Below are positions 11,737-47,849 of a DNA stretch of 57,352 nt, piece after piece. The notes under the pieces are model-generated. The model saw nothing but the letters and a program-made list of their open reading frames with translations, made no database searches and was not told where the DNA came from. Location: IMG/VR virus record IMGVR_UViG_3300044960_000873, positions 1 through 57,352 of that record; one strand, 5' to 3'. Every line of letters starts with the position of its first letter. Positions within the stretch are counted from its first letter, which is position 1. The stretch is from a virus (taxonomy: Duplodnaviria; Caudoviricetes). The translations under genes and the position numbers were made by a program.

Positions 11737-12147
11737 CTAGGCCGCCTCATACTCGACGACGACCAGGAGCGACGGCATCGCCAGCCCGGTCCCCACCAGT
11801 TCGCGTTGCAGGTCCAGGCACGCGCCGGCCGCCAGCGAGAGCGGCGTCGACGGCTGATAGAGCACCCGCCGGGTGTAGGCCGTCTCATTCGTGCCCGACA
11901 GGTAATCCCGGTTGGCCACCTCGGTCGAGGATGCGCCATCTACGCCCCGGTTGATCACGTTGAGGTTGAACGTATTCGTCGCCTGGCCGGTAATGCCCGC
12001 CGCCGGCACGATCGTCACCGAGCGGATCCGACAGGCGAATGGGGCCATGAACACCACCCGGCTCGCCGTCGCGTCCCCCGCCGCCGCCGGCGGGATCAGC
12101 GTCTGCTGCACCAGCGGTCCGGCCAGGTCATGCATCGTGTTCGCCAT
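11737..12147 (-). CDS. Capsid decoration-like protein
   Basis: Beta-rich; GGAGG RBS; downstream of the capsid gene. Confidence 0.55.
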   Translation of the reverse strand: MANTMHDLAGPLVQQTLIPPAAAGDATASRVVFMAPFACRIRSVTIVPAAGITGQATNTFNLNVINRGVDGASSTEVANRDYLSGTNETAYTRRVLYQPSTPLSLAAGACLDLQRELVGTGLAMPSLLVVVEYEAA

Positions 12148-12176
12148 CTGGTTGCCTCCTCATGTTCGCTCGCGCG

Positions 12177-12440
12177 TCAACGCCCGCGACGCTGCCGCGC
12201 CCGTCCCAGTTTCGTCTCGTCCGCTACGCTGATGTCCGCCGACGTCTCGTCGTCATCCGCTACGCTGGTCTCGGCTGAGGTCTCGTCCACCGCCACAGCC
12301 TCGGCTGTCGCCAGCGTCGCCCAGTGTTTCGCCCCGTCATCGGTCACCACACAGACGCGGTCGGTGAACGCATACACCGCCCGCACCCGCGCCGGGTCCG
12401 CCCGGGACAACCGCGCTGCCTGCTCGCGTGAGATCATCAT
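12177..12440 (-). CDS. Hypothetical protein with acidic repeats
   Basis: Repeated DETSA(E/D)xSVAD units. Confidence 0.5.
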   Translation of the reverse strand: MMISREQAARLSRADPARVRAVYAFTDRVCVVTDDGAKHWATLATAEAVAVDETSAETSVADDDETSADISVADETKLGRARQRRGR

Positions 12441-12494
12441 CGCTACGCCCTCTCAGGCGAGGGTGGGGGCCAGAGCCCCCACCACTCCGTCAGT

Positions 12495-16197: not shown

Positions 16198-17675
16198 CAG
16201 CCCACCGCATCCAGCGGCTGCGGTTCATCCCGCCGTAGCCGCGCCACAGGGAACACCGGCGCCTCCACTGCCGGCTCCCCCTCCGGCATTTCCTGCGGCT
16301 CCAACTGCGCGGTCTCCTCGTCCAGATCGATATCCGCGCCCAATTGGGTGGCCATGAGCAGGAACAACCGCCGCGCCGTGTCCTGGCTGACGTACCCCTC
16401 GCCCACCGCCAGCGCCAGCGTCTGGGTCAGCGTGGACAACGCGCCGACCACCTGCTGCGTATCCGCCGGCGAGAGGTCGGGCATCTCCACCCGGAACGCC
16501 TCCCCTGCCGGGATCATCACCCCCGTCAGCTGACCATCGCCGCGTTCCTCCGGCACCTCGGCCGGCAGCCGGCCAGCCAGCACCGCGTAATCCACCTGGC
16601 AACGCAGCACATCGCCCACGATCGCGCGCCACTCGTCCTGTACGCTGGTCATGCGTTTGCGCACCGGCTCGGCCATCGCCTGCGCCGAGGCCCGGTTGAC
16701 ATCCTCGCCCTCGGCGAACCAGTGCACCGGGATGCCCACCGCCCCGAAAATATGGTTGCGCAGGAACCGCATCAGGTTCGCCGCGTCGTACGTGTCCAGC
16801 CGGGGGGTCTTCGCCTCCCAACTGATGCGCTCGTTTTGCAGCATCACCGCGCCCGGCTTCGGCGGCTGCGCGTACTGCGGCAGCGCGGCCAATTCAGCCA
16901 GTTCTCGCGCTGTCGCGTCCTTCACCGTCACCGTCCAAATGAAGGCCTTCATGAGCAGTGCGCGCTCGACCTCGTTGAACACCATCTGGTCGAGCAGGTC
17001 AATGAAATCGGCCAGGGTATAGAGCAGCGAGATCCCGCGTGTACCCAGCGGGTTCTGCCGTTTCCAGAACAGCGCTGGCCGCTCGATCTCGCGCAGATCG
17101 TCAGCCCCCTCGCGCAGGTTGACGATCTGGTAAGCGCGTGGTTCCTCGCCGGGGAACGAGCGCAGCCGCACCTCGCGCACCACGCGCCAGTTCTCCGGGT
17201 CCGGCCGCACCTCGCGCACCTCCTCCGGCACGACGCAGCCGACGCGCAGATGGCCATCCAGCGGGTTGGGGAACAGCGGCAGCAGCAACTCACCGCTGAC
17301 CAGGTACACGGTCAGCAGGTCAGCCGCGTTGCGCTCCCAGTCGTTATAGCCGTCCTGCCAATGACGCTCGATCACCTCGCGCACCTGGGCGTTGCGGTAG
17401 GTCAGCGTCATCCCCTCGCCGAGGACGAAATCGACCAGCATCGAGACGAGCCGGTGCGCGACCGGGTTCGTCCGGTAGAGGTAACTGGCTACGCGCAGCA
17501 TGTGCTCGTGCTGGTAGGCCGGCAGGTTCTGTCCCCGCTCGCCAGTGATGCGCCGGTAGAGGTGGTCGTCGTCGTCGATCCCCTGGTTGGCCAACAGGTC
17601 GAACGTCGCCTCGCGTGCCGCCTCACGCCGGGTCGCAGCCGGTTGTCGCTGCCGGCGCGCGCGTCTGGTCGTCAT
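16197..17675 (-). CDS. Portal protein
   Basis: 492 aa directly after terminase; GIPVHWFAEGEDVNRASA. Confidence 0.88.
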   Translation of the reverse strand: MTTRRARRQRQPAATRREAAREATFDLLANQGIDDDDHLYRRITGERGQNLPAYQHEHMLRVASYLYRTNPVAHRLVSMLVDFVLGEGMTLTYRNAQVREVIERHWQDGYNDWERNAADLLTVYLVSGELLLPLFPNPLDGHLRVGCVVPEEVREVRPDPENWRVVREVRLRSFPGEEPRAYQIVNLREGADDLREIERPALFWKRQNPLGTRGISLLYTLADFIDLLDQMVFNEVERALLMKAFIWTVTVKDATARELAELAALPQYAQPPKPGAVMLQNERISWEAKTPRLDTYDAANLMRFLRNHIFGAVGIPVHWFAEGEDVNRASAQAMAEPVRKRMTSVQDEWRAIVGDVLRCQVDYAVLAGRLPAEVPEERGDGQLTGVMIPAGEAFRVEMPDLSPADTQQVVGALSTLTQTLALAVGEGYVSQDTARRLFLLMATQLGADIDLDEETAQLEPQEMPEGEPAVEAPVFPVARLRRDEPQPLDAVG

Positions 17676-17677
17676 CC

Positions 17678-19258
17678 TCAGCCTCCACGTCCCTGGCGCA
17701 ACACCGCGCGCCGATCCGTCCGATACGCCTCCAGCACCGGCACGCTCGCCGCCAGGATTCCAGCCGCCGGCGCGGTCCCAGCATAGGCCAGGTTGAGCGC
17801 ATCGGCATCGTCCGGCGACCGGCCCAGCCGGCGCTTCGTGTCTGCCTTCGGCTCGACCACCCGCCGGCCACGGTTATCCAGCCGCCAGGTCGGGGCCAGA
17901 CATTGCCGGCGCAGGTCGGCCAGCACCGCGTCCGCCAACCGCGACAGGTCCAGTTGCCCCTCCAGCGCCCGTTCCGCCGTCGCGAACCACAGTTCCGAGC
18001 GCCGGTTGGGGTAGTCCTCTGGCGCGATGGCCGGTTTCCCCGCGTTCACCGGCAGGAACGTGTACTCCTCGCGCTGGTCGACCACCCCGCCGCCAACCCC
18101 GTCGTCGTCCACCCGCACGATCACCGCCCGGCCGTCCAGCCCACAACGCCGGCCATATTCCCGCGCCAATTCCTTCAGGCGGCCGGCCGTCTGCGCGGTG
18201 TCCCAACCATGCCGCTGCTCGTGGTGCAACGAGACCGGCCCGCGCCGCACATGGATCGCCGTGTGGTCGTCCCCGAACCGGGCCACGTCGCAGCCGATCT
18301 CGCAGGGCACGTCGTCCGGCTCGGGCAACCCCGCCGTCGCCGCCGCCTGGAACGCCGCGTCGCTCCAGACGGCATTCACCGTCGTCGACGGCCAGCGTCC
18401 CATCACCCGCGATTCGAACAACGGTCCGGGCCGGTACCACGCCCCCGACCCCGGCGGCCACTCCAGATCGGTCGCGCGCGCATCCCCCGACGCCAGCGGC
18501 GTGCACCAGCGCGCCAGCCGTTCGTTCACCCAGGCCAGCCGAACCGCCTGGGGGAATGGCGGCGGCTCCCCGCGCAGTTCGGCCAGCACGTTCGGGTGCT
18601 CCAACGCGCTCACGCTGATCAGCACGGCGTCGGCGCGCAGCTCCGCCCGGTACGCCGCGCTGGCCACGTCGGTCGGGTTGTAGATGCAGAGCCAGCGGTT
18701 CTCCGGCCCACTGGTCAGCATCGCCTCCGCCCCCTCCCAGAACTCCAGCGGCACCCCCACCGCCTCGTCGAACACGATCAGCAACCGCTCCTCGTGGGTG
18801 CCCTGGAACGCGTTCACGTCGCGCGCGGTGTAGCCAGCGGCGTAATGATTCGGCCCATCCTGCATACGCGGCGCCTTCGGGTAGAGCCCCGGCCGGCCAC
18901 GCCGTTGGGTGCGCACCTCGCGCCAGAGCAGGTCCTGCACCTGCCTCCCCGTCGGCGCTGTCGTCAGACAGATCGAGGGCGTGCGCGTGTCATACCACCA
19001 GTTGACCAGCCCGCCGGCCACGTGCGTCTTGCCCACCGCATGCGAGGCGCGCACCAGCACACGTGGATGCGTCGCTAGCGCCTCGGCGATGCGCGCCTGT
19101 TTCTCCCACCAGGTCACCCCGAGTACGTCGCGTGCATACCCCAGCGGGTCATCCCGGTAGGCCGCGTAGGCAGAGCGCAACCGCCCCTGCGCCTCATATG
19201 CCTGGCGCAGGCGGGCGAGCGCATACAACGCCGAGATCGTCGCCTCTGCCGCGCTCAC
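17678..19258 (-). CDS. terL: Terminase large subunit
   Basis: Walker A SHAVGKT, Walker B IVFDEA, nuclease GCDVARFGDD and SPDDADAL; GTG start overlapping the terS stop. Confidence 0.93.
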   Translation of the reverse strand: MSAAEATISALYALARLRQAYEAQGRLRSAYAAYRDDPLGYARDVLGVTWWEKQARIAEALATHPRVLVRASHAVGKTHVAGGLVNWWYDTRTPSICLTTAPTGRQVQDLLWREVRTQRRGRPGLYPKAPRMQDGPNHYAAGYTARDVNAFQGTHEERLLIVFDEAVGVPLEFWEGAEAMLTSGPENRWLCIYNPTDVASAAYRAELRADAVLISVSALEHPNVLAELRGEPPPFPQAVRLAWVNERLARWCTPLASGDARATDLEWPPGSGAWYRPGPLFESRVMGRWPSTTVNAVWSDAAFQAAATAGLPEPDDVPCEIGCDVARFGDDHTAIHVRRGPVSLHHEQRHGWDTAQTAGRLKELAREYGRRCGLDGRAVIVRVDDDGVGGGVVDQREEYTFLPVNAGKPAIAPEDYPNRRSELWFATAERALEGQLDLSRLADAVLADLRRQCLAPTWRLDNRGRRVVEPKADTKRRLGRSPDDADALNLAYAGTAPAAGILAASVPVLEAYRTDRRAVLRQGRGG

Positions 19259-25271: not shown

Positions 25272-26303
25272 TCACGCGGGCCAACGCTGCCGTGGCCGGC
25301 CCTGCTCGTCGTACCACTGCGCCAGCAACCCATTTGGCCGGATCTCCAACGGCGGCGGCGGATTCCAGTATGCCGGCGCCACCGCCGCCGTCTCCTGGTA
25401 GTCCAGCTCCACAACCGCTGGCGATGCTCTGCTCGGCGGCACATACACCCGCGTGAACCAATTCGTCAGCGCATTTTTCCAGCCGGCGAACCGCTTCTCT
25501 CCCTGGTTCGCCCGCCTCATGCTCCAGTAGTCGCGGAACTTCATCGCCTCCACACGCAGTTGCGCGTACCCGATAGCCGGACCATCGCGGCAGGCCAGCA
25601 CCTCCCGCAGGTGCGCGACCACCGCCGCCTCTTGTATCGCGCCCATACCAGGAACTGCGCGGATGATCGCCACGATCTCCCGTTCCTCGGCCGATACCTC
25701 CCGTTCCTCATCGATCATCGCGGCAGCTGCAGCTGGCGGCATGCCGCCAGCTTCTCTTCTTTTCTTTTCTATTCTTTTCTTTTCTATTAGGGCCGACTGG
25801 TCGTCGATTGATCGTCGACTGGTCGTCGATTGATCGTCGACTGGTCGTCGATTGATCGTCGACTGGTCGTCGACTGGTCGTCGATTGATCGTCGACTGGT
25901 CGTCGACTGGTCGTCGACTGGTCGTCGACTGGTCGGGGATGGAATCCGAAGCCAATTCCTCCGCCTCGTCCGGGCCAGGCAACAAACTGGGGGCCGGTTT
26001 CTCGATCCGCTGCCAGGTGTTGTAATTGCGGAATACCAGGTACGCCTTCCCGGCCACCACGTAACGCCGCAATTGGCTCATGCTGCGCAGCACCGCCGCG
26101 AGGTCCGCCTCGATCGTCTCCAGGTCGCACCCGCCATAGACCGCCGGCAGCATCAGCCGGATCGCCCGCGCCGAGCCTTTCAGCCGCCCCTCATCGTCCG
26201 CGTTGGAGAACAACCCGATGTAGAGCACCTGCTGCGCCGGGGTGAGTTCGGAAAACCCGTCGTCGCTCCAGATCGTCGGGTCGATCATCCGTTTTCGCGC
26301 CAC
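25272..26303 (-). CDS. Phage replication initiator (lambda O-like arrangement)
   Basis: MARKRMIDP...ADDEGR N-terminus; internal iterons and EKKRIEKKRR linker; next to DnaB. Confidence 0.85.
   Translation of the reverse strand: MARKRMIDPTIWSDDGFSELTPAQQVLYIGLFSNADDEGRLKGSARAIRLMLPAVYGGCDLETIEADLAAVLRSMSQLRRYVVAGKAYLVFRNYNTWQRIEKPAPSLLPGPDEAEELASDSIPDQSTTSRRPVDDQSTINRRPVDDQSTINRRPVDDQSTTSRRSIDDQSALIEKKRIEKKRREAGGMPPAAAAAMIDEEREVSAEEREIVAIIRAVPGMGAIQEAAVVAHLREVLACRDGPAIGYAQLRVEAMKFRDYWSMRRANQGEKRFAGWKNALTNWFTRVYVPPSRASPAVVELDYQETAAVAPAYWNPPPPLEIRPNGLLAQWYDEQGRPRQRWPA
25751..25935. repeat. Replication origin: about 13 tandem 11-bp iterons plus an A/T-rich tract
   Basis: GACTGGTCGTC/GATTGATCGTC units at 25795-25935; pyrimidine and AT-rich run at 25751-25789. 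Confidence 0.8.
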
Positions 26304-37802: not shown

Positions 37803-38123
37803 ATGTACACCATCACCGAGATTCGCCTGCCGGCGCAAAGCCGCCGGATAGTCTGGAGGGGCGAAGACCTCGGCCAGGCGGTCATGGCCCTCGAGGCCAT
37901 CGCTGCCGAGGCCATCGACGACGCCCAGTACTGGCCCGAGTCTGCCGAGGTCGTGACGTACTGGCCGAGCGGCAACCGCCGCGACCGGTACGTCCTCCGG
38001 GACGAGGACGGCCTCGTCCCCTACGAGATCGACCCCTGGCGCGGGTGCACGGCCCGGCGCGAGGTCGCGCACATCGCGCTCGCCGGCATCGCCGTGCGCG
38101 ACCAGCGCGTCGGCCCCGCCTAA
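37803..38123 (+). CDS. Hypothetical protein
   Basis: AAGGA RBS; follows paralog B. Confidence 0.6.
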   Translation: MYTITEIRLPAQSRRIVWRGEDLGQAVMALEAIAAEAIDDAQYWPESAEVVTYWPSGNRRDRYVLRDEDGLVPYEIDPWRGCTARREVAHIALAGIAVRDQRVGPA

Positions 38124-38184
38124 TCGTTCAGCACGCCGGCCCGGCTCACCACCGGGCCGGCGGGGAGGAGATTGTGGGGGAGCA

Positions 38185-38580
38185 ATGACCAACGACCTGC
38201 TCACCCTCGCTCAGGCGGCCCAACTGGCCGGGGTCAACCCTGCCAGCCTCCGCCGCGCCATCGCGCGCGGCACCCTCGCCGCCACCAAATACGGCAAAAC
38301 CTATCTCGTCACGGCTGACGAGATCGCCCGCTTCATCCGCGAGCGCCGGTTCGCGGACCGCAGGAGGGAGATACCCGGTATGCGCATGTACGTCACCGAG
38401 TCCCTCCCCAACCACTGGGTCATCAACGACGCCACCGGGTGGTGGCTCGTCCCCAACGTCCCCGGCGGCTGGACCCGCCGCACCGCCTATCGCGGACACG
38501 TCGCCAGCCTCGCCCCCGTTTCCGTCGGCGTCGCCGCGGGTATGGCCCGCCTCGTCGGTTACGAGGAGCCCACGCCATGA
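38185..38580 (+). CDS. HTH_17/excisionase-like DNA-binding protein
   Basis: LLTLAQAAQLAGVNPASLRRAIARG; ATGA-coupled to tnpB. Confidence 0.8.
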   Translation: MTNDLLTLAQAAQLAGVNPASLRRAIARGTLAATKYGKTYLVTADEIARFIRERRFADRRREIPGMRMYVTESLPNHWVINDATGWWLVPNVPGGWTRRTAYRGHVASLAPVSVGVAAGMARLVGYEEPTP

Positions 38581-39761
38581 CCGACGCCACCCGCACCTAC
38601 CGGTTCCGCCTCTACCCCACGCCATCCCAGGCGGCCCGCCTCGACCTCTGGCTGATGCGCTGCCGCCATCTCTACAACGACATGCTGACCCAGCGCATCT
38701 GGTCATGGCAGACGCGCCGGGTATCGATCACCTATTACGACCAGCAGAACGCGCTGCCGGAAATCCGGCGCGCATTCCCGGAGTACGCCGAGCTCCCCTC
38801 GAACGTGCTCCAGAACGTCGCCCGCCGTGTCGATATCGCCTATCAGCGTTTCTTCCGGCACGGCGCGGGGTTCCCCAAATATCAGGGGTTCCGCCGCTAC
38901 AACTCGTTCTGCCTCCACTCCCCCAGCGGCTGGAAGCTCCGCCCCGGCCCCGGCCGCATGGGCCGGCTCTCGATCCTGCGCCTGGGGGATATCCCCGTGC
39001 GCGTCCACCGTCCAGTCGCGGGAGAATTGCGCACCTGCACCATCGTGCGCCAGGCCGGCCGCTGGTATGCCTGCATCACCGCCCGCCACGTGCCCATCCC
39101 CGAACTCCCGGCCAGCCCAGCCGCGGTCGGCGTCGACCTGCGCGTGGCCGAGCATTTCCTCGCTACGAGCGACGGGGAGTTGATCGACAACCCCCACCCG
39201 CTGGAGCAGGCATTACGCGACCTCGCCCGCATCCAGCGCACGGTCTCTCGCCGGCAACGCGGCAGCAACCGGCGCGAGGACGCCGTGCGCCAGCTCCAGC
39301 GGGCGCATCAGCGCGTCGCCAACCTGCGGCGCGAGTTCCACCACCGCCTCAGCCACGACCTGGTGACGCGTTACCAGGTGATCGTCGTCGAGGACATCTC
39401 CCCCCTGTTCATGGTCGAGCGCGCGCAACGCGACCCCTACCCGCGCAACCAGGCGCGGCGCGCGCTCGACTCCGGCTGGGGGCAGTTCCTCGGTCTGCTG
39501 GAGTACAAATGCCGCGACCTGGGGCGGATGTTCATCCGCGTCGAGCCGGCCATGACCAGTCAGACCTGCTCGCGCTGCGGGGCCGAGCACGATACCGGCC
39601 CAACCGAACGTATATTCCGTTGTCCGCAGTGTGGATGGGAGGTGCACCGGGCGATCAACGCTGCGCGCAATATCCTGGCGCGTGGCCTGGAGTTGGAGTA
39701 TCATTGCACCAACAGCCGACTACCGGCTGACGGGGACGGGGGGCAATGGCCCCCCGGATGA
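38577..39761 (+). CDS. tnpB: TnpB-family RNA-guided protein, predicted nuclease-dead
   Basis: TYRFRLYPT N-terminus, RuvC-I VGVDLR, RuvC-II VVED, TSQTCSRC/CPQC zinc finger, RuvC-III HRAINAARNI lacking the Asp. Confidence 0.92.
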   Translation: MTDATRTYRFRLYPTPSQAARLDLWLMRCRHLYNDMLTQRIWSWQTRRVSITYYDQQNALPEIRRAFPEYAELPSNVLQNVARRVDIAYQRFFRHGAGFPKYQGFRRYNSFCLHSPSGWKLRPGPGRMGRLSILRLGDIPVRVHRPVAGELRTCTIVRQAGRWYACITARHVPIPELPASPAAVGVDLRVAEHFLATSDGELIDNPHPLEQALRDLARIQRTVSRRQRGSNRREDAVRQLQRAHQRVANLRREFHHRLSHDLVTRYQVIVVEDISPLFMVERAQRDPYPRNQARRALDSGWGQFLGLLEYKCRDLGRMFIRVEPAMTSQTCSRCGAEHDTGPTERIFRCPQCGWEVHRAINAARNILARGLELEYHCTNSRLPADGDGGQWPPG

Positions 39762-39812
39762 ACCGTGGACTTCGCGCCCGTGGAGGTGAGCGATCCCGCG
39801 TACGAACGAGGT

Positions 39813-40024
39813 GTTCCGCCCACGCGTGCGGGGAGTAGGCGACAATCACCCAGTCGTTCTCCGAGTACAAGACGTTCCGCCCACGCGTGCGGGGAGTAGG
39901 CGTTCGCCATGGCCACGATATCTTTGGCGAGCTCGTTCCGCCCACGCGTGCGGGGAGTAGGCGGCAGCACCGTAATAGCAACCACGCGCCAAGTCGTTCC
40001 GCCCACGTGTGCGGGGAGTAGGCG
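39813..40024 (+). CRISPR. CRISPR mini-array: 4 repeats of 29 bp and 3 spacers of 32 bp, plus a degenerate trailer
   Basis: GTTCCGCCCACGCGTGCGGGGAGTAGGCG at 39813, 39874, 39935, 39996 (last with 1 mismatch); exact 61-bp period; remnant GCGAGGAATAGGCG ending at 40060. Confidence 0.93.
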
Positions 40025-40121
40025 AAATGCGCTGGATGCCTGTGCCGCGAGGAATAGGCGTAGACGCTGCCGGCCAGCACGCCGGTCCACTCGATGCAGT
40101 GCTGGTGTGACGAGGAAACAT

Positions 40122-40151
40122 AAGCCCCGCTACCACCCGGTAGCGGGGCTT
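40122..40151. terminator. Hairpin between convergent transcription units
   Basis: 13-bp perfect stem AAGCCCCGCTACC/GGTAGCGGGGCTT. Confidence 0.7.
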
Positions 40152-40216
40152 CGTTCATCAGCGTGCGATTGCCTCTACGCTAGGCTCCCTCGTCCCCATG
40201 GCGCGGGCGTGGAGTG

Positions 40217-40530
40217 TCAAAAAATGCCATTAATTCGGCGTCTGAGGGCAATCGGATCCGTCAGGTAGCGGTAGACGGTGCGCTCTGCGACGCCGAGCGC
40301 GCGGGCGATATCCCTGCGGGTCAGGCCCTGGCGGTCGAGTTCGTGCGCGCGGGCGACGCGTTCGCGGTGTCTCGTCTGGTGGCTCCCAACGCGCCGTGGC
40401 CTGGCCGGCGCGGGTCGATGTCGCCGGCGAGGATGCGGTCGATCACGGCGCGGACGACAACGAACCGGCTGCCCAGGTTGTCAAGGCCATAAAATGACAC
40501 GAATCCTGCATCCCGCATGCCAGGGCTCAC
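40217..40530 (-). pseudogene. Frameshifted resolvase-type HTH gene
   Basis: HTH GLTRRDIARALGVAERTVYRYL lies in a frame without its own start, overlapping ORF 40321-40530. Confidence 0.45.
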
Positions 40531-41192
40531 CACGGCGTCACCCGCTCTCCCAGTCTCCACACCGCCTCCGCCGCCAGCGCCCGCAGCCGGCCCAGCCCGT
40601 ATGTCGTATGTTTCCCTACCCCGCGATACTCCCCGAACCGCGCCAATAGCCACAGCGTCGCCAGGTCCTCCGCATCCACCCGCGAGCCGTCGAAGCGCAC
40701 CACCCCCACGAACCCGCGCTGCGGCTTCCCTCCGGCGATCGGCAGCGTCGCGTAGCGCAACACCTCCGGCACCACCCCCACCCGGCGCACATCCGGGTAC
40801 GCGATCTCGCCGCCCAACGCCCGCCAGCGTTCCACCAACGACCCGAACACGTGGAACGCGTCCGGCGTCTGCACCTCCAGCCCCGCCGTGCGGAAATGCG
40901 TCGGCGTCTCGAACGCCAGCCGCAGCGTCCGCGGCAAATCACCAGCCGGCGACAGGTCAGCCAACCGCGCGCGCCGCACCAACCGCGCCCCCGGGTCTCC
41001 CAGCAGTAACGCCCGCGTCAGGTCATCCTCGAACGACACGACATCGATCGTCCGGGCCCGCACGACCACGCTGTATGGCCGTACCGCATCCCCCGCGTGC
41101 AGCCGGTCGGCCAGCTCCAGGTCGACCCGCCCCACCGTGCTCATCACCCGCTCGATCGGCCCACGCCCCGTCGCGTCGGACAACCTCACCAC
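40527..41192 (-). CDS. cas6: CRISPR pre-crRNA processing endoribonuclease Cas6
   Basis: RPYS, LAFETPTHF, GFVGVVRF and C-terminal G-loop GVGKHTTYGLG. Confidence 0.88.
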   Translation of the reverse strand: MVRLSDATGRGPIERVMSTVGRVDLELADRLHAGDAVRPYSVVVRARTIDVVSFEDDLTRALLLGDPGARLVRRARLADLSPAGDLPRTLRLAFETPTHFRTAGLEVQTPDAFHVFGSLVERWRALGGEIAYPDVRRVGVVPEVLRYATLPIAGGKPQRGFVGVVRFDGSRVDAEDLATLWLLARFGEYRGVGKHTTYGLGRLRALAAEAVWRLGERVTPW

Positions 41193-41572
41193 CGTGACGC
41201 AGCCTGCCAGCGCCGCCACAGTTCCGGGTTGTGCTCCCGGCAGAGCCGCTCCACCTCCTCCGGCGCGATCAGCCACCACGCATGGTGCGCCCGCCGGCGT
41301 GGCTTCACCCGCCGCGCCCGGATCCGTTTCTCCCGCGCCAGCCGCGCCAGCCACTGGGGCGTATACCCCGTCACCAGCGCCGCTTCCCCCGTCGTGTACC
41401 AGCCTCGCTGTTGCGTTTTCCAGATGCGCAGCCGCCAGCGCCAGTTCTCCAGCGTCCGCGGCGCGATCCCCAGCCGTCTCGCGATCCAGCGGTCCGTGCG
41501 CGTCGCGCCCCATCGGCTCAGCGCCTCCTCCACCTCAGCCCGTCGCCGGCGTTGGGTCCTGTTGCTCCCCAC
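41186..41572 (-). CDS. HTH DNA-binding protein
   Basis: IARRLGIAPRTLENW and YTTGEAALVTGYT; coupled to cas6. Confidence 0.7.
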   Translation of the reverse strand: MGSNRTQRRRRAEVEEALSRWGATRTDRWIARRLGIAPRTLENWRWRLRIWKTQQRGWYTTGEAALVTGYTPQWLARLAREKRIRARRVKPRRRAHHAWWLIAPEEVERLCREHNPELWRRWQAASRW

Positions 41573-41837
41573 TGCGCGTGTCCACCTGCCGTTGCAACGA
41601 GAACCCGATCGTTGGCGTCAGATGCGCAATCCCGCTCGCCGGGTGCTCGGCGTAGGCGCGCAGCATCTCCCGGAACGCTGCCTCGCTCGCTGCCGCGACG
41701 CCCGCTGCCAGCACGACCCCCTGTTCAGCGTCCACGCACAGCCGCTCCATCAGCGTCAGCGCCAATTGGCTGCAATCGTCACAGAGGCCCGTCGTCCCGA
41801 GCACGCGTGCCTCATCCCCACATGCCCGGCAGGGCAT
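41535..41837 (-). CDS. Small Zn-finger-like protein
   Basis: CRAC...CDDC; GAGAGG RBS. Confidence 0.55.
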   Translation of the reverse strand: MPCRACGDEARVLGTTGLCDDCSQLALTLMERLCVDAEQGVVLAAGVAAASEAAFREMLRAYAEHPASGIAHLTPTIGFSLQRQVDTRSGEQQDPTPATG

Positions 41838-41846
41838 CGGCCCCTC

Positions 41847-42461
41847 TCATTCCGCCGGCCACCCGAACGTTACGCTCACCACCCCACGCCGGCTCCCCAC
41901 CGTCGAGCCGATGTCCCGGTGTTGCGCCAGATTCGGCAGCGCCACATAGAGCATCTCCCCATGCGCCCGCAGGTACTCGCGCAGATGCACATCCCAGCCG
42001 TGGTGCGGCGACGGCCAATCCCGCACGCCCTCCGCGATCCGCCGCGGCAGCAGCACCGCGATCGTCCCCACCCAGATGCGCAGCGAACGCAGTCGGTCGA
42101 TACACGCCCGGATCGGCCGGCCGGCGTCCAGCGCCCGGTTCACCCAGGCCGGGTGGTAATAGCGCGCCGCCGTGAACAACGTCACCGCCACGTCCGCCGC
42201 CAGCAGCTGCGGCAACCGCGTCGCCAGGCTGGGACAGATATCCGCGTCGTCCTCGACATACAGCAGGTGCGTCGCATCCGGGCGCGCGTGCAACCCCAGC
42301 GCCACTGCCCGGTCGGCCGTCCGCCGCTGCGCCCGGTGGTTCGTCGGCTCCTCCGCCGCCTGCACCGTCACCAACGGCGGCAACCCCAGCCGTTCGAGTT
42401 GGCGCACCGTGTCCCGCAGCGCCTCCGCCCGGCTCCAGACGCTGGGGATGACCGTAACCAC
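41847..42461 (-). CDS. GT-A fold glycosyltransferase
   Basis: LLYVEDDA, WD, PNLAQH...STVG motifs; start inferred. Confidence 0.7.
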   Translation of the reverse strand: MVTVIPSVWSRAEALRDTVRQLERLGLPPLVTVQAAEEPTNHRAQRRTADRAVALGLHARPDATHLLYVEDDADICPSLATRLPQLLAADVAVTLFTAARYYHPAWVNRALDAGRPIRACIDRLRSLRIWVGTIAVLLPRRIAEGVRDWPSPHHGWDVHLREYLRAHGEMLYVALPNLAQHRDIGSTVGSRRGVVSVTFGWPAE

Positions 42462-42712
42462 CCGCGCCGGTGCGTCAGATGGTCCAGCAACACATGCCGG
42501 CCCCACGCCCGCGCCGGCCGGCAGGGGAGCGCGAGCAACAGCACCCACGCCGGGTGATGCGTCAGCCGATGCAGCCGGTACAGCCGCGACCGGCTCGGGT
42601 GCACGCGTCGCGTCAGCAACACCGCCATCAGCAGTGGCGCATCCGGCGCGATCCCCCACACCCGGTCCATATACCAATGCGTCCCCAGGCAGGCCATCAA
42701 CTGAACCCCCAT
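42368..42712 (-). CDS. Small His-rich membrane-bound metal-dependent hydrolase-like protein
   Basis: H...APD...HRLTH...HVLLDHLTH pattern. Confidence 0.5.
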   Translation of the reverse strand: MGVQLMACLGTHWYMDRVWGIAPDAPLLMAVLLTRRVHPSRSRLYRLHRLTHHPAWVLLLALPCRPARAWGRHVLLDHLTHRRGWLRSSPASGAGRRRCGTRCANSNGWGCRRW

Positions 42713-43422
42713 TGCCGGCCATAGCGCGCCTCCAGCCGCTCCATCAGCCCCGGCCACCCCTGACGCAACACCCAGGCATCGGACAACGGCAACGGCCCCA
42801 CCCGCCACGTCTCGCGCGGCATCCCCAGGCGCGCATACACGTCGTACGCCGGGTGGTAGTGCAGCCCCCGGTCGCCGATATAGGCCCAGATATCGGCATC
42901 GCTCCAGCGCCGCAGCGGCCATGCCCGCCATTGCCCATCCACCGCCTGGAACAACCCGCCGAACCGGCGGGTGGCGATGCGCCGGTGCCGCGCCTCGGCC
43001 GCCCGGATGCCCACGAGACAGCCGTCATACCCAGCCGTCAGCGACCAGGGTTCCATCTCCTGCCCGATCCAGCGCATTTGCGGCAACGGCTCGCGCCAGA
43101 ACGGCTCCTCCCGCCAGGGGTCGAACCACCCCGCGTGCCGCGCCCACCCCTGCACCACCTGCAGCTCGGGGAAGCTCAGCACGAACTCCTCTTCGCCGGG
43201 GTGGATCAATTCGTCGTCGGCCCAGATCGCGGTGATCCCCGGCCGCACTAGGCGCGCTAGGTCGAGCACCACCAGCGAATCCTTCCCCCCGCTGAATGCC
43301 ACGTACCAGCGACGCCCCAGCTCCAGCGCCGTCTCGATCTCCCCGATCGCCCGGTCTACCCGCTGGCGGAACGGGCGCGTGCGTGCATGCAGCGCGTCCT
43401 CGCGCCGCAACGCCGCCCCCAT
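42697..43422 (-). CDS. cysH: CysH-like PAPS reductase-family protein (type IV-B ancillary)
   Basis: PP-loop AFSGGKDS, GIRAAEA, PLRRWSDADIWAYI, YHPAYD; directly after csf3. Confidence 0.9.
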   Translation of the reverse strand: MGAALRREDALHARTRPFRQRVDRAIGEIETALELGRRWYVAFSGGKDSLVVLDLARLVRPGITAIWADDELIHPGEEEFVLSFPELQVVQGWARHAGWFDPWREEPFWREPLPQMRWIGQEMEPWSLTAGYDGCLVGIRAAEARHRRIATRRFGGLFQAVDGQWRAWPLRRWSDADIWAYIGDRGLHYHPAYDVYARLGMPRETWRVGPLPLSDAWVLRQGWPGLMERLEARYGRQWGFS

Positions 43423-43424
43423 GC

Positions 43425-44093
43425 TCAGCGCAACTCCGGCATGAAACACCGCGTCCGTTGCTCTGGTCGCCGCCCCGGTGGACGAATCCCCCAGTCCATC
43501 TGCGTCCCCGGCCCCAACTGCCCCATGTGCGCCGCCGCGAACTCCACCGGCAGCGGCCGGCGGAACCGCGCGATCGCCGCGTCGCCCCCCGGCTCCACCG
43601 TCCAGGCGCGCACCTGCCCCCAGCCATGCGCATATCCCGCGCCAATGTTGTGGCAGCGCGCCAGCAGCCGGCGCAGCTCCGCCGCATCGCCGATCGCGTG
43701 CCAGCGCACCCACGGCGTGACGATGCGCGTGTGTCGCGTGCGGTAGGCCTTGTACGGCCCGCCGGCGGTCAATACCCGCCGCACCGTCTCCGGCGTAAAC
43801 CCCAGCGCCGGGCCGTCGTCGAACCGCCGGTGCGTCCACGACTCGAACGTCGCCCGCGCCTCGGCCAGCGGTGAGGAAACGCACCACCACCAGTGCCCCT
43901 CCCACGATTCCCGCGCCAGCGGCAGTTCCGCCTCGACCACCGGCCGATGCCCGGTCATGCCCAGCGCGAATTCCTCCTCCCCCAGTTGCTCGCGCAGCGC
44001 CCAATAGGCCAGGATGCCCTCCAGCGCCGGCGACCACGGGTCGGAGGCCGCATACCCATTCACGAGCCACGCCGTCACCAGCAGCGGCTCCAT
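43425..44093 (-). CDS. csf3: Type IV Cas5-like subunit Csf3
   Basis: LEGILA, G-loop IGAGYAHGWGQV, RPLP, GIRPP. Confidence 0.88.
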   Translation of the reverse strand: MEPLLVTAWLVNGYAASDPWSPALEGILAYWALREQLGEEEFALGMTGHRPVVEAELPLARESWEGHWWWCVSSPLAEARATFESWTHRRFDDGPALGFTPETVRRVLTAGGPYKAYRTRHTRIVTPWVRWHAIGDAAELRRLLARCHNIGAGYAHGWGQVRAWTVEPGGDAAIARFRRPLPVEFAAAHMGQLGPGTQMDWGIRPPGRRPEQRTRCFMPELR

Positions 44094-44587
44094 CAGGTCA
44101 CCTCATGGCCGATCGTGTCCAACACCGTCTCGAACCGCCGCTCGGCCGGCCGTTCCCGCTCCAGCCGGTCGCGCACCAGCGCGATCACCAGCGACGACTG
44201 CGTGTTGTAGATATCGAGCACCCGCCGGTGGTCCACCCGGCGCAACACCCCGGTGAGGAATTCGCGCTGCTCCGGGTCCGCTCCCGGCTGGATGTACTCC
44301 CCCTCCGCCGTCTCCACCAACGGGATCACTCCACGAATGCCCACCTCCACCGCCCTGGGGTGGAGCGAGCCACAGGCCAGCCTGGGCATCAACCGGTCGA
44401 GGAACTCCGGCAACGTGCGCGAGCGTTTCGCCGATGCGCGCACGAACCGCGCGACCTGGCTCCAAACGTCCGGCGTGATCTTGAACCGGTTGCGGTCCCG
44501 CGAGCGCCAGGTGGCATACACCAGCAACGCCGCCGTCGCCTCATGCAGATCCCCGGTGTCGAACCCGTAGATGTACTCCCCGCTCAC
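44093..44587 (-). CDS. cas11: Type IV-B small subunit Cas11
   Basis: Alpha-helical 164 aa protein between csf2 and csf3, translationally coupled to both. Confidence 0.7.
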   Translation of the reverse strand: MSGEYIYGFDTGDLHEATAALLVYATWRSRDRNRFKITPDVWSQVARFVRASAKRSRTLPEFLDRLMPRLACGSLHPRAVEVGIRGVIPLVETAEGEYIQPGADPEQREFLTGVLRRVDHRRVLDIYNTQSSLVIALVRDRLERERPAERRFETVLDTIGHEVT

Positions 44588-45579
44588 GCGCCGGCTCCGA
44601 TCATGCGGCGGATCTCCGGTTGGTTCGCGTCCAGCATTGCGTCGTAAATCCCGCGCAGGTGCTGGTCATAGGCATCCTTCGCCGACGCCGCCGGCAGGCT
44701 CAACAAACACCGGTCGGCGACGGTGACGAATTCGGGCACCACCTCTCCCGTATCCAGGTCCCCCAACACCGTCTCCAGCGTCACCAGCCCATGCCCCCGG
44801 TTCGCCTGTCCGCCGATGTGCGGCGAGCGGCTGAACGTATGCAGCCCCGAAACCAGGCAGCCCAGTTCCACATCGGTCACGTCGAGCAGGTCGATGTGCG
44901 CCAGCAATTGCGTCCCCGCTGCGAGCAGCTCCACCGTCATGCGCATCTGCTGCGCCGGCGCATCCCCCCGCGCCGGTTTCGACTCGTCGCTGGGCAACAA
45001 CGCCCCCTGGGTCAACGCCGGAGCCGATTGCGCCAGGTACGGCAGGTAGGCGGGGTCTTTCGCGTCGTCCTTGCGCGAGAACGATTTCTCGAACGTCAGC
45101 GCCGCGTAGGAGACGGTCGTCGTCAGGCGGTGGAACGGATCAATCGCCGGCAGCGCCTCGACGCATACCGGGTAGGCGTTGGATACGCGCATTTTCCCCG
45201 GCAGCACCTGGTTGCCGATCCCCCCGCCTAGCAGCGCCAGCATCGGCAGCAGCCGGCGATACGCCCGCGCTACCCCCAGGTCGGTCTGCTGTTGCCCACC
45301 GATCGCGCCGCCGGAGAACAACAGGTGGAACGCGTCCAGCGAAATCACCGGGTTGCCCAGACGCTGGAGCAAATACGTCGCCATCAGGTCGCGCAATTGC
45401 CCCCGCCAGGCGTTGCCTGAGTAGCAGAATACCCTCGCGACTGACTCGTCCGGCTGGAGGATCGGCTCCTCCACCAGGAATGACGTCGTCGATTCCGACT
45501 CGCCGATGTGCGAGAGCGGGCTACGTAGGGTGAACCGTTGCAGCAGGCGCAGATTGCGCGTGCGCGTCGTCGTCTCCAT
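44584..45579 (-). CDS. csf2: Type IV Cas7-like backbone Csf2
   Basis: SPLSHIG, SGNAWRGQLRD, LFSGG, LLGG, G-loop IGGQANRGHG. Confidence 0.92.
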   Translation of the reverse strand: METTTRTRNLRLLQRFTLRSPLSHIGESESTTSFLVEEPILQPDESVARVFCYSGNAWRGQLRDLMATYLLQRLGNPVISLDAFHLLFSGGAIGGQQQTDLGVARAYRRLLPMLALLGGGIGNQVLPGKMRVSNAYPVCVEALPAIDPFHRLTTTVSYAALTFEKSFSRKDDAKDPAYLPYLAQSAPALTQGALLPSDESKPARGDAPAQQMRMTVELLAAGTQLLAHIDLLDVTDVELGCLVSGLHTFSRSPHIGGQANRGHGLVTLETVLGDLDTGEVVPEFVTVADRCLLSLPAASAKDAYDQHLRGIYDAMLDANQPEIRRMIGAGA

Positions 45580-46327
45580 CCAACCTCCGGGCGATATGCA
45601 ATACCAACCGGAACAGGTCGCGTTCGTAGTTGCGCCAGTGGACGAGTTCGGCATCCAGCCGCCGCCACTCCCGGATGCCCAGCCTGGCGATACGGTGCGG
45701 TGGCGGCTCTCCGCTGAATACGTCATCGCGGGTCAGCCCCGCCGCCAACGCCGCCTCCACCGCCGTCAGGCACGCGCGCAGTCGCTCGCGGTCCACGATC
45801 AACGTGTCCTCCTCGACCTGCACCGGGAACGTACCGCTGCTGTAGGCGATCTGGGCGCGGAAGATCGTGTGTTTCTGCCCCGTCAGGGCGATGCAGAGCA
45901 CGAACGGAGGCGCTGGGGGATCGAGCAACGACTCGCGCAGGTCGGCGCGCCCCAGCCGGCGGTGGCCACTGGGGATGCCTGGGGAGAACGCATGCGAGTA
46001 ATTGCGCCAGCCGAGCCGCTGGGAGGCTGGGGGCGGCTGCCCCGCGCGCGCCAGGTGGTCGCGCCACCCCTCGTTCGTCGAGAGATAGACGCACGCCTGG
46101 CACACCGTCTGCGACGTCGGCACGGCCGCCGCGTTCACGTTGGTGAACGTCGCCGGGTCGAACGCCGGCCGGCCACGCTGGGGCCAGCCCACCCCGCCGG
46201 TCTCGCCGCCACATAACCAGCAGGCCGGATCAGCCCCATACCGCTCCCCGCGTTTGGGGATTGGCGGGCGCCATTCGGGTGATCCAATCAGCCGGTGCGC
46301 CAGTTGCGGCGCGCTGAACACGCGCAT
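45521..46327 (-). CDS. csf1: Type IV Cas8-like subunit Csf1
   Basis: CWLCG, CQAC, LLDPPAPPF, GQKH. Confidence 0.85.
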   Translation of the reverse strand: MRVFSAPQLAHRLIGSPEWRPPIPKRGERYGADPACWLCGGETGGVGWPQRGRPAFDPATFTNVNAAAVPTSQTVCQACVYLSTNEGWRDHLARAGQPPPASQRLGWRNYSHAFSPGIPSGHRRLGRADLRESLLDPPAPPFVLCIALTGQKHTIFRAQIAYSSGTFPVQVEEDTLIVDRERLRACLTAVEAALAAGLTRDDVFSGEPPPHRIARLGIREWRRLDAELVHWRNYERDLFRLVLHIARRLDGDDDAHAQSAPAATVHPT

Positions 46328-46333
46328 GTGCAC

Positions 46334-46362
46334 AGTGTACGAACAATGGATGGTATGAGCAA
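46334..46362 (-). promoter_or_regulatory. Promoter of the type IV-B operon, probably giving a leaderless mRNA
   Basis: TTGCTC-N17-TACACT separated by 6 nt from the csf1 ATG; no SD sequence. Confidence 0.6.
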
Positions 46363-46565
46363 CCCCTATTGGATGGGGAAATGGATGGAGCCAAACAGCG
46401 GGCAGTGGCTGTCAGCCGGCCGCCCGCTGTTTGGCACAGGGAGGAGGGAGAGGAGAAATATGCACTGGGTGGCCCGGCCACGCCGCCGGGCCATGCGTGA
46501 CCGCCGGCCAGTTCCCACGGCCTCTGGGCTCCGGGTCATGCCGCGCAATCTGGCCTGCCCGCAGA

Positions 46566-47849
46566 TTACTGCGAACCCGGCAGGCGCACCAATGTCGCCC
46601 GTCCAAATCCCAACGGCACGTCGCTGCCGTCGTCGTCGCGCCAGATATCCCAGGCGTAATCGCTGCCTGCCGCCAGATTCGCCGGCCACGCCGTGTCCGC
46701 GATGGTCATGTCCACGATCCGGTTTGCCGCGTCATTGATCGTCACCGCTGGGGAGAGCACTGTCTGTGCCGGATTCGACCGCCGCGCGATTTCGCTCCGG
46801 AACGTTTGCCCCGCAATGCTCCCCGTGCCCTGGATCGTCATCCGCACTACCTGGTCGCTGCCGATGTACAGCGTGATGTCCGTCTCGACCGGCATGTCAT
46901 CATCTCCCATCACCGCAATGACTGCATCATTCCGCCCCGTCACCGCCACGATGCGGTCATCCCGGCCGCTCACCAGTACCAGCGCGTCGTCGCGCCCCGC
47001 CACGTGAATGACGCGCGGATCGCCCGGCGGCGGCGTCGATACCGAGCCGTCCGCCCGTACTTCGCATCCGCCGCTGAGCACGCCCGGAGCGCCTGTGCCA
47101 GCGAACGCCGCCGCACTGGCCACGCCGCCGGCCGCCAGCAGCGCCGCCGCGCTCGTCCCCAGTGTGGCCTCGGCCAGCAGCCGGTCTGCTCCATCCAGCC
47201 GCCCCGTGCCGCTCGTCCCCAGCGCCCCAGCGCCGGCCGTGCTCACATGCGCGACGGCACTGCCCGCAGCCAGGACATCCGCGCCAGCGTGCCCGGACAG
47301 CGATGCGCCGCCGGCCAGCAGCCCGTCCCCGAGCACCTCGTTGCCGCCGGAGATCGTCCCGTCGCCGGCTAGCGCCCCCGCGCTGGTGACCAGCGCCGCG
47401 CCCGTCGTCCCCAGCGCCCCAGCGCCGGAGAGCGCCGGCCGCTCCGCAATCAGGCCGTCGGCGACGACGCCCACCGCCGGCTGCGCCGTGGCCAGCGCGC
47501 CGACCGCGACGACCCCGCTGGCCACCACCTCGGGCGTCGCCGTCGCCGCAATCTGCCCCGTCGCCAGCGTCAGTCCCGCGCCGGGAATATCCGCCGCGCC
47601 AGCCGCCGTCAGCGTCGCCGCGCTCCCGAGCGCGCCTGGGGAAACCGTCTCGACCAGCGCTGCTGTCGCAAGCTGCCCCGTGGCGCTGACCGGAGCGCTG
47701 CCGGCCATCTCCAGCGTCGCCGCGCCAGCCAGATTCGGCGTCGCGCTCAGCAGCCCATCGCCGAATATCTCACCAGCCCCAGGCGCCGCCGATGGCAGGA
47801 ATCGCCGCCGCCGGCGCGGGCGATAAATTGTCCGTCGCCACGCCGGCAC
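46566..47849 (-). CDS. Ala/Gly-rich virion fibre-like protein with C-terminal beta domain
   Basis: Low-complexity repeats; position in the second structural cluster. Confidence 0.55.
   Translation of the reverse strand: MPAWRRTIYRPRRRRRFLPSAAPGAGEIFGDGLLSATPNLAGAATLEMAGSAPVSATGQLATAALVETVSPGALGSAATLTAAGAADIPGAGLTLATGQIAATATPEVVASGVVAVGALATAQPAVGVVADGLIAERPALSGAGALGTTGAALVTSAGALAGDGTISGGNEVLGDGLLAGGASLSGHAGADVLAAGSAVAHVSTAGAGALGTSGTGRLDGADRLLAEATLGTSAAALLAAGGVASAAAFAGTGAPGVLSGGCEVRADGSVSTPPPGDPRVIHVAGRDDALVLVSGRDDRIVAVTGRNDAVIAVMGDDDMPVETDITLYIGSDQVVRMTIQGTGSIAGQTFRSEIARRSNPAQTVLSPAVTINDAANRIVDMTIADTAWPANLAAGSDYAWDIWRDDDGSDVPLGFGRATLVRLPGSQ

Follow-up and report, generated by a model that had tools for sequence, protein, structure and literature searches.

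A phage-borne type IV-B CRISPR-Cas operon with a built-in Cas6 and an I-E-type CRISPR array close by

Type IV-B is the least understood subtype among CRISPR (clustered regularly interspaced short palindromic repeat) systems, and the only complex of this kind to have been purified carried random RNA, according to the portions of the literature available to us. Here we analyse a type IV-B locus on a stretch of 57,352 bases, referred to throughout as the window, which is the whole of the linear IMG/VR virus record IMGVR_UViG_3300044960_000873 (CheckV completeness 83%, guanine-cytosine (GC) content 68.4%). The sequence occurs in hot-spring and microbial-mat metagenome runs. Its genes for portal, capsid-protease fusion, DnaB helicase, tyrosine integrase and endolysin proteins identify its source as a temperate tailed phage. 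The locus consists of an operon for the IV-B effector that ends in a cas6 gene and, 502 nucleotides (nt) beyond the cas6 stop codon, a small CRISPR array. Its core features are listed below (aa, amino acids; crRNA, CRISPR RNA).

45521-46333, minus strand: csf1, Cas8-like large subunit with CxxC pairs (start GTG 46333 or ATG 46327)
44584-45579, minus strand: csf2, Cas7 backbone subunit (PADLOC Csf2_0_IV, 8.2e-58)
44093-44587, minus strand: cas11, type IV small subunit (PADLOC Cas11_2_IV, 5.8e-42)
43425-44093, minus strand: csf3, Cas5 (PADLOC Csf3_0_IV, 1.8e-37)
42697-43422, minus strand: cysH-like PAPS-reductase/PP-loop ATPase (Pfam PAPS_reduct, 3.3e-13, 50.4 bits with a cut-off of 22.5; PHROG 2302, 6e-24)
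42368-42700, minus strand: gene F, about 110 aa in length (called as coding from third-position GC)
41847-42461, minus strand: gene G, possibly glycosyltransferase-like (start uncertain, 42461 or 42371)
41535-41837, minus strand: gene H, 100 aa with two CxxC pairs (sequence reading)
41186-41572, minus strand: gene I, predicted HTH_17 DNA-binding protein (Pfam HTH_17, 9e-7)
40527-41192, minus strand: cas6, a short Cas6 (about 205-221 aa), overlapping the end of gene I by 7 nt
39813-40024, plus strand: CRISPR array of I-E type, four 29-nt repeats (starts at 39813, 39874, 39935 and 39996) and three 32-nt spacers
within each repeat, plus strand: 8-nt tail, the predicted crRNA 5' handle, AGUAGGCG

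The operon genes were called by third-position GC frame analysis and by reading of the open reading frames (ORFs), which gave ten tightly packed minus-strand genes from 46333 to 40527. The order put forward in the original prediction, csf1-csf2-cas11-csf3 and a cysH-like gene followed by four packed small genes (F, G, H and I) and cas6, was confirmed by this ORF and GC-frame reading together with PADLOC and Pfam matches. Assignment of csf1 was based on a PADLOC match (Csf1_0_IV, 2.2e-28) and an NCBIfam match below its cut-off (cas8u_csf1, 1.6e-15), with the third-position GC frame supporting coding. As the NCBIfam equivalogs of Csf1, Csf2 and Csf3 were all matched only below their curated cut-offs, the three proteins of the phage appear to be divergent members of their families. 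The cysH-like gene directly follows csf3, and its product contains the SGGKDS motif and lacks the C-terminal Cys motif.

For typing we applied the published definition of the subtype, as given in the part of the source available, namely cas11 plus a cysH-like gene, a Csf1 large subunit and no helicase; judged by its predicted proteins, the locus belongs to subtype IV-B so defined. Searches of the whole record detected no Cas1 or Cas2 gene, no cas3_core, no DEAD_2 (DinG), no AAA_30 (RecD) and no Y1_Tnp (TnpA) (0/1 each, control genomes being positive), with the qualification that the record is 83% complete and that its missing part could hold these genes. The earlier statement that cas1/cas2, cas3 and dinG are missing was upheld by these searches, and that of a phage-borne type IV-B was borne out by cas11 with the cysH-like gene and by the lack of helicase and adaptation genes. 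Within the same 83%, the hallmarks of IV-A and IV-E (DinG), IV-D (RecD) and IV-C (Cas10-HD) were absent, the large subunit being Csf1 and not Cas10. When Csf2 was compared with the PDB by phmmer, the IV-B Csf2 7jhy (2.9e-14) came before the IV-C Cas7c 11fs (7e-11) and the IV-A Csf2 8rc2 (1.2e-4), the comparison being confined to solved structures of IV-A, IV-B and IV-C. The usual IV-B trait of having neither Cas6 nor array does not apply here, where cas6 stands in the operon and an array 502 nt away. That absence is a usual trait of the subtype and not a defining one, and the locus is an atypical IV-B variant.

The period of the array is exactly 61 nt, which is far beyond chance; repeats 1-3 are identical and repeat 4 has one C-to-T change. 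At its other end the array starts 51 nt after the stop codon of a tnpB gene. To judge from its repeats and spacing it is a genuine class-1-type array, and the original claim of a real four-repeat array about 500 bp past cas6 was correct. Each repeat has a 5 + 16 + 8 nt layout, consisting of a 5-nt flank, a 6-4-6 stem-loop and an 8-nt tail, which is the same as that of the Thermus I-E repeat. As the reference that fixes the strand of the repeat we used Thermus thermophilus plasmid pAA229, in which cas3 through cas2e and then the array follow on the same strand. The plus-strand repeat is identical to the pAA229 I-E repeat at 19/29 positions in register, with no shift; for the minus-strand repeat the identities with the Thermus I-E repeat were 7/29 in register and 15 at the best shift. 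Moreover, when read on the plus strand the array ends with the variant repeat, and degenerate repeats hold the same place in the Thermus array.

A difference between members of the phage population bears on the same point. In one metagenome run (X7), a contig with a depth of 4.2 starts at repeat 2 and has, in the place of spacer 2, 18 substitutions, one insertion and one deletion, after which repeat 3 and spacer 3 follow to at least 39992 without any listed difference; other contigs of this run differ from the window by 0-1 bases over the neighbouring genes. So this contig holds another 32-nt spacer at the place of spacer 2. With the distal spacer in common and the proximal one differing, this single low-depth contig, from one of the four metagenome runs examined, suggests the pattern of acquisition at the leader end, from the tnpB side. 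Since adaptation genes are missing from the phage, it is apparently Cas1-Cas2 of a host I-E system that renews the spacers of the array, and the polymorphism suggests adaptation by such a system.

Three independent observations, namely the in-register match with the Thermus repeat, the place at which the variant repeat stands and the spacer difference in X7, favour an array that reads on the plus strand, away from the cas operon. A minus-strand array, indicated by folding (-10.8 vs -7.8 kcal/mol, with G.U in place of the plus-strand A.C), was dropped because of these same three observations, and folds of the whole array were uninformative on strand. On the plus-strand RNA only four of the six pairs of the stable 6-bp I-E hairpin are left, the other two being A.C and G.G mismatches, and the 8-nt tail differs from the Thermus handle at 5/8 positions. 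Similarity of the leader to the Thermus leader was not significant. The GC content of the spacers is 50-59%, vs 68.4% for the phage. Two exact 21-nt patterns of the repeat gave no match in IMG/VR. A 17-nt pattern of the repeat was too loose for the genome contigs: the matches listed (at least 120 stretches) were for the most part due to chance or to lone variant repeats within I-E-type arrays of actinobacteria, and none of those listed had the whole repeat. No Rfam family matched the repeat or a TnpB guide RNA.

The cas6 product matched Pfam CRISPR_Cas6 (PF10040) at 3e-17, with 63.6 bits vs a cut-off of 25. Its glycine-rich loop is GVGKHTTYGLGR, in which the G, T, G and G positions are conserved in 21/21 sequences of the family alignment (A1); an invariant His32 and a GVGKHTTYGxGR loop characterise this alignment. 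His32 lies within an LH..PY motif that aligns weakly with Cas6 6fjw; it is a candidate for the catalytic residue in a predicted cleavage of the repeat. With the family profile the nearest solved structures were those of T. thermophilus Cas6A (4c8y, 4.7e-17) and Cas6B, and not Cas6e. The family is rare, with 22 proteins in a 90%-identity search and 25 representative clusters at E ≤1e-30 among 1.84 billion representative proteins, and no member was found in PLSDB plasmids or INPHARED phages.

IV-B loci were surveyed by Csf2 and Cas6 scans, with single proteins and with alignments, which yielded 42 IMG/VR loci and several metagenome loci. CysH was detectable in 36/42 of the IMG/VR loci, the other six running off the contig end soon after csf2 or csf3. 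The gene order csf1-cas11-csf2 was found in 33/42, the order csf1-csf2-cas11 being common only to the window and locus L137, which is the closest to the window and has in addition the same helix-turn-helix (HTH) gene I. The Cas6 family profile matched in 8/44 loci scanned (L005, L137, L139, L163, which is the L132 contig, L152, L154, L156 and L158). With the window included, Cas6 is present in 9/45 IV-B loci, seven of them distinct after merging of loci with identical Csf2. In every Cas6-bearing IV-B locus the gene is part of the operon and either follows cysH or separates it from csf3. The phage Cas6 therefore belongs to a small family built into the IV-B operons of unrelated phages, and since this family is found inside IV-B operons in 8/44 other loci, it probably works with the Csf proteins. 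No report of an IV-B-specific Cas6 family was found in the literature searched. The Cas6-bearing loci are scattered over the Csf2 tree, requiring at least 3-4 gains or losses. Because the Cas6 proteins of these scattered loci form one family, the simpler reading, which is not proven, is that Cas6 is an old component of IV-B that was often lost.

The cassette is horizontally mobile, since the window and the 98%-complete phage G001 have only cas genes in common.

The array does not follow the same distribution as cas6. Arrays were sought in all survey loci as a shared 10-mer in three copies or a shared 18-mer in two, at a spacing of 45-95 nt, in flanks of up to 10 kb and often shorter; solitary repeat copies were sought in the window, G001, L006, L007, L132, L133, L134, L137, L139 and L142, and there were none. 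An I-E-like array was present in no other Cas6-bearing IV-B locus. As eight other such loci, L137 among them, lack it, the array is not a conserved partner of the IV-B/Cas6 lineage. No non-coding conservation was detected between the window and L137. The proposed survey of IV-B loci for cas6 plus an array was fruitful for cas6 (9/45) and produced no other comparable array. Counting arrays of any kind in this small survey, 2/7 distinct Cas6-bearing loci had one vs 0/30 of the others (one-sided Fisher p = 0.03), the second array being that of L158, which comes after a gene for a 570-aa Cas12m (PDB 23vw, 1.9e-164). Other repeat pairs in the survey loci were discounted as arrays, being tandem, iteron-like or coding duplications.

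Locus L158 is in an unrelated phage of lower GC, with an IV-B operon at 8959-13248 that has the same Cas6 family, and with Cas12m and its array at 17146-19240, about 4 kb downstream. This array is small and irregular, and its repeats end in GGAAC or GAAAC. Cas12m and the array can be read as a self-contained type V-M system. After the Actinomyces plasmid discussed below, L158 is thus the second example in which IV-B adjoins a type V system of the binding-only kind. The Csf2 clade of the window was found in none of the searched part of 401 Actinomycetota genomes, and in 0/4 in another search. A separate group of nine IMG/VR loci (L174-L177 and L179-L183) has a divergent phage-borne Csf2 clade with 25-29% identity to the Csf2 of the window by tblastn; csf3 and cysH were present in 9/9 of these loci and Csf1 in 8/9 (not L177), and cas11 was not detectable by tblastn. 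This clade may represent a distinct IV-B-like variant.

The surroundings of the array, on the side of tnpB and between the array and cas6, contain the following features.

38185-38580, plus strand: excisionase-like HTH_17 gene (Pfam HTH_17, 4.2e-10; PHROG excisionase/regulator families), its stop overlapping the tnpB start
38577-39761, plus strand: TnpB-family protein, 394 aa (Pfam HTH_OrfB_IS605, OrfB_IS605 and Cas12f1-like_TNB)
39762-39812, plus strand: 51-nt stretch from the tnpB stop to repeat 1, serving as a short array leader and likely to contain the TnpB guide
40122-40151, minus strand: 13-bp GC-rich terminator-like hairpin between the cas operon and the array
40223-40480, minus strand: HTH gene remnant, an open frame without a usable start codon and absent from the list of ORFs of at least 50 aa

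The best solved relative of the TnpB is ISDra2 TnpB (3.3e-42 over residues 6-370), and among plasmids and phages its best matches, with 37-41% identity, are to elements from Thermus and Deinococcus and to phages of Thermus; no relatives were found in IMG/VR with the single protein or with an alignment. A PDB alignment to ISDra2 TnpB shows that the RuvC residues Asp187 and Glu272 are retained, whereas Ala occupies the place of the third Asp. This replacement is common to 3/12 aligned TnpBs, the window's and its two closest relatives (73% and 56% identity), and the next three relatives keep the Asp. The description of this TnpB as dead was weakened, since only the third RuvC Asp is lacking; the nuclease-dead status is a prediction from one substituted residue of three, and the paper on TldR, in the part available, states that single RuvC substitutions can be spurious, being compensated from another position, its authors having required at least two changes.

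In four TnpB relatives a covarying hairpin and, after it, a conserved motif lie right at the gene end, and the gene neighbouring tnpB starts 2-46 nt after the tnpB stop in 4/5 loci (298 nt in phiLo). A GC-rich hairpin also occurs in the window, at 39735-39756, roughly where the relatives have theirs, with an offset in the MAFFT alignment. Because of this gene-end hairpin and of the short gaps between tnpB and the next gene in the relatives, the 51 nt ahead of repeat 1 are the most likely location of the TnpB guide. This stretch has no match of at least 11 nt elsewhere in the window, so that no TnpB target was found there. Complementarity of the anti-repeat or tracr (trans-activating CRISPR RNA) kind was not above background (-36.8 and -37.4 kcal/mol vs a control mean of -35.5, sd 2.9), and the array repeat is homologous to I-E repeats and not of the TnpB guide-RNA scaffold type. 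The TnpB seems to have its own guide-RNA end and probably does not need the array; as part of the best explanation, we regard the TnpB with altered RuvC as a separate module that would use its own guide RNA. The suggestion that Cas6 serves the dead TnpB has become unlikely, given that the Cas6 family travels with IV-B operons devoid of TnpB and that the TnpB appears to keep its own guide-RNA 3' element. A co-location of IV-B and TnpB as a rule was rejected, the other TnpBs near IV-B loci (L155, L157, L172 and L174) being ordinary, with the third Asp intact in 4/4; these neighbours look like ordinary insertion sequences.

Taken together, these results favour, tentatively and with slightly less than even confidence, a phage Cas6 that makes crRNAs for loading of the IV-B complex, which would then bind without cleaving. 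Cas1-Cas2 of a host I-E system would fill the array in trans, as in type IV-A3, and the precursor crRNA (pre-crRNA) would be cut within its repeats by the phage Cas6, possibly also by the Cas6e of the host. The crRNAs would load a complex of Csf1, Csf2, Cas11 and Csf3, which would bind complementary nucleic acid of competing mobile elements without cutting it, blocking transcription or replication as type IV-A3 does when DinG is lacking, and the CysH-like PP-loop enzyme might act on the bound target. The gene identities, the array and its strand, the occurrence of Cas6 in IV-B operons and the lack of nuclease, helicase and adaptation genes are observed; we infer that Cas6 would cut this repeat, that the Csf proteins would take up the crRNAs, that the outcome would be binding only and that CysH could have a role. 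In support of this, all parts of the IV-B effector and Cas6 are intact in one operon, no anti-repeat was found that ties the array to TnpB, arrays of any kind were confined to Cas6-bearing loci in the small survey, and there is a precedent in the I-E-like repeats of IV-A3, served by host Cas1/2e in trans, as described in the part of the source available. The guide-complete IV-B system of the original prediction is in this way still the single most likely reading; what has weakened it is an array that is not conserved, that is of I-E type and on the opposite strand, and whose leader side abuts tnpB.

A number of observations weigh against the supply of the IV-B complex from this array. No array was found in L005 (over the whole 57-kb G001), L132/L163, L137, L139, L152/L154 or L156, and no solitary repeats in L005/G001, L132, L137 or L139. 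L137, the sister of the window (support 100/99), shows neither an array over the 6.4 kb that follow its cas6 nor a TnpB, and the L158 array, the only other one near a Cas6-bearing IV-B operon, belongs to the type V-M Cas12m. The hairpin of the plus-strand repeat is weak, 153/200 shuffles folding as well as its -7.8 kcal/mol, and the phage Cas6 resembles T. thermophilus Cas6A rather than Cas6e, the I-E enzyme. The cas operon and the array occupy opposite strands, and between them stand a terminator-like hairpin and a gene remnant. No spacer targets were found in the window, the fetched loci, INPHARED or PLSDB. Finally, the solved Mycobacterium IV-B complex bound heterogeneous RNA and not co-expressed I-E crRNA, according to the available part of a review.

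The main rival, which we consider rather unlikely, is that the array is an ordinary viral mini-array for a host I-E system, filled by the host Cas1-Cas2, cut by Cas6e and used by Cascade-Cas3 against competing phages, or acting as a decoy, with IV-B and Cas6 as an unrelated neighbour taking RNA from elsewhere, for instance from hijacked or sponged host arrays. The I-E type of the repeat in sequence and in its 5 + 16 + 8 nt geometry agrees with this, as does the spacer length, and the array reads away from an operon that is mobile, sharing only its cas genes between the window and G001, and whose relatives function with no array at all; there is good documentation, according to the available part of a review, of viral mini-arrays relying on host systems. 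However, no host array with this repeat turned up in IMG/VR or among the genome-contig matches listed, the two broken stem pairs (of six) on the plus-strand RNA should hinder Cas6e, the 8-nt handle is unlike that of Thermus at five of its eight positions, and at 0.5 kb from the array there is a complete effector that has a Cas6 of its own. The array might alternatively have no function and serve no effector, as a passenger derived from a host I-E array, part of which recombination would have brought to a scar of mobile DNA. The number of repeats, only four, the weakened hairpin, the position between a gene remnant and a TnpB and the lack of spacer targets in the sequences searched speak for such a passenger, but the three identical repeats at exact spacing, the spacer polymorphism that keeps the length of 32 nt and the spacer GC content, which is lower than that of the phage as expected of foreign-derived spacers in a maintained array, make it quite improbable.

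Slightly more improbable in our opinion is an array that stores guides for the TnpB-like protein, as a nascent type V-like system with an inactivated nuclease that would block its target by binding, like Cas12m or Cas12b3. Its position 51 nt past the tnpB stop and on the same strand is the usual type V layout, the Asp-to-Ala change in the three closest sequences suggests a maintained, altered function, and IV-B is found near binding-only type V systems with mini-arrays both in L158 (Cas12m) and in the Actinomyces plasmid. Nevertheless, the protein is an ordinary 394-aa TnpB near ISDra2 whose gene-end hairpin leaves room for a fixed guide before repeat 1, in line with the relatives, whose elements end no more than 50 nt past the stop in 4/5 loci. 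The repeat is of class-1 (I-E) type and shows no anti-repeat or tracr-like complementarity above background, and the third Asp is intact in all four of the other TnpBs near IV-B loci, which are of the ordinary kind.

Loading of the IV-B complex with crRNAs made by the phage Cas6 and a mini-array for a host I-E system are compatible, as crRNAs from one array could load both effectors. It is also possible, if somewhat doubtful, that an IV-B sub-lineage kept Cas6 to draw I-E-type pre-crRNA, mostly from host arrays, this phage having become self-sufficient by means of a host-fed array. A bolder extension would be that IV-B complexes loaded with host crRNAs shield or mark the protospacers of their own element, thus acting as an RNA-guided anti-CRISPR.

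If a sub-lineage did keep Cas6 for this purpose and this phage is self-sufficient, this would be the first guide-complete IV-B system with several spacers, and the source of IV-B guides and the activity of the complex, including that of CysH, would become directly testable. As a natural locus with effector, processing enzyme and array on 6.5 kb, it lets the RNA of the Csf complex, its target binding and the role of CysH be asked about. Concrete material is likewise offered by the small Cas6 family built into the IV-B operons of unrelated phages. Should the array prove instead to serve the I-E system of a host, the locus would amount to an ordinary viral mini-array beside an ordinary, though Cas6-bearing, IV-B cassette.

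Regarding the accessory genes, no family match was obtained for gene F or gene H in Pfam, NCBIfam, PADLOC or PHROG, and gene F had no homologue in the related loci. Gene G had a weak match to the PHROG 854 glucosyltransferase family (E 0.0043); a G-like stretch with 34% identity lies directly upstream of cysH in L168 (14287-14532), and may point to a recurrent IV-B accessory gene. Homologues of gene I lie inside the L137 operon (2362-2712, 55% identity) and adjoining cas6 in L140 (354-626, 45%), and gene I may be a dedicated regulator of the cassette. It has no similarity to the excisionase-like HTH_17 gene upstream of tnpB.

Between the array and cas6, the hairpin at 40122-40151 is one of two terminator-like sites in 38000-46800, where shuffled sequences had a mean of 2.7. 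The bin 40224-40607, which covers the HTH remnant and the 3' end of cas6, was 3-20 times deeper than neighbouring bins in 4/4 metagenome runs, and many metagenome contigs break near 40568-40600. Because the remnant bin is many-fold deeper in all four runs, this region suggests the scar of a mobile element present in many copies in the community. Apparent joints in the read mapping were discounted as noise, most of their sides being only 20-31 nt long in GC-rich DNA.

As to the host, there are hints, without proof, of a Thermus- or Deinococcota-like organism across the window: the hot-spring source, the GC content of 68.4%, the Thermus and Deinococcus elements as best plasmid and phage matches of the TnpB, the 66% identity of the repeat to the T. 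thermophilus I-E repeat, and T. thermophilus Cas6A as the nearest solved Cas6. The window DNA had no match in INPHARED, and the capsid protein had only distant matches among phages, giving no clue to the host. Elsewhere in the window, about 17 copies of an 11-nt unit (CGACTGGTCGT / CGATTGATCGT) at 25772-25968, upstream of the DnaB helicase gene, have the look of iterons or of an origin. A sub-threshold Rfam match to the Guanidine-II riboswitch at 38000-38057 (22.4 bits vs a gathering score of 32, E 0.14) is probably due to chance in GC-rich DNA.

Type IV-B is described without arrays in the 2025 classification (Makarova et al. 2025), and without arrays and Cas6, and with an unknown function, in reviews up to 2025, including one of 2024, in the parts of these sources available. 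In the literature searched, IV-B was nowhere reported together with Cas6 and an I-E-type array of several spacers. The uniqueness first claimed for the locus was nevertheless overstated, as both IV-B with Cas6 and IV-B with a mini-array were already in print. Pinilla-Redondo et al. 2020 mention IV-B with Cas6 as 'rare exceptions: only 12 instances', a gene pairing that is the same as in the window, and the available text reports no arrays for these loci.

The locus shares with the type IV-B of Mycobacterium sp. JS623 (Csf complex 7jhy) the csf1, csf2, cas11, csf3 and cysH-like genes and the lack of helicase, nuclease and adaptation genes. It differs from a typical IV-B, which has neither Cas6 nor array according to the sources as far as available, in its operon Cas6, in the array 0.5 kb off and in the csf1-csf2-cas11 order. 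The TldR proteins (TnpB-like nuclease-dead repressors), which are often prophage-borne, resemble the phage-borne TnpB of the window in lacking TnpA and in an altered RuvC triad conserved in the closest relatives, whereas the TnpB of the window has a change in only one of the three catalytic residues and retains an intact C-terminal domain. On the Actinomyces plasmid shown in Extended Data Fig. 7 of Makarova et al. 2025, IV-B stands beside an inactivated Cas12b3 and a mini-array, according to the part of that paper available; this plasmid and L158 are like the window in having IV-B beside a TnpB/Cas12-family protein with impaired or absent nuclease and a small array, but their arrays belong to a recognised type V effector, whereas the window has a small TnpB and an I-E-type repeat. 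Type IV-A3, in the accounts accessible in part, is likewise an effector of mobile elements with I-E-like repeats, no adaptation genes of its own and an interference based on binding, as proposed here; unlike the window, with its cas11 and cysH, its Cas6A-like Cas6, its non-conserved array and no DinG, it has DinG, a Cas6e-like Csf5 and a constant array. Fuxivirus, a virus of Bathyarchaeia, also has an IV-B with cysH and a two-repeat mini-array nearby, for which its authors proposed host-assisted adaptation, as we do here, in the text available. Fuxivirus is an archaeal virus with one spacer and with Cas6 unmentioned (0 occurrences in the text), whereas the window combines three spacers with a Cas6 and with a spacer difference at the population level.

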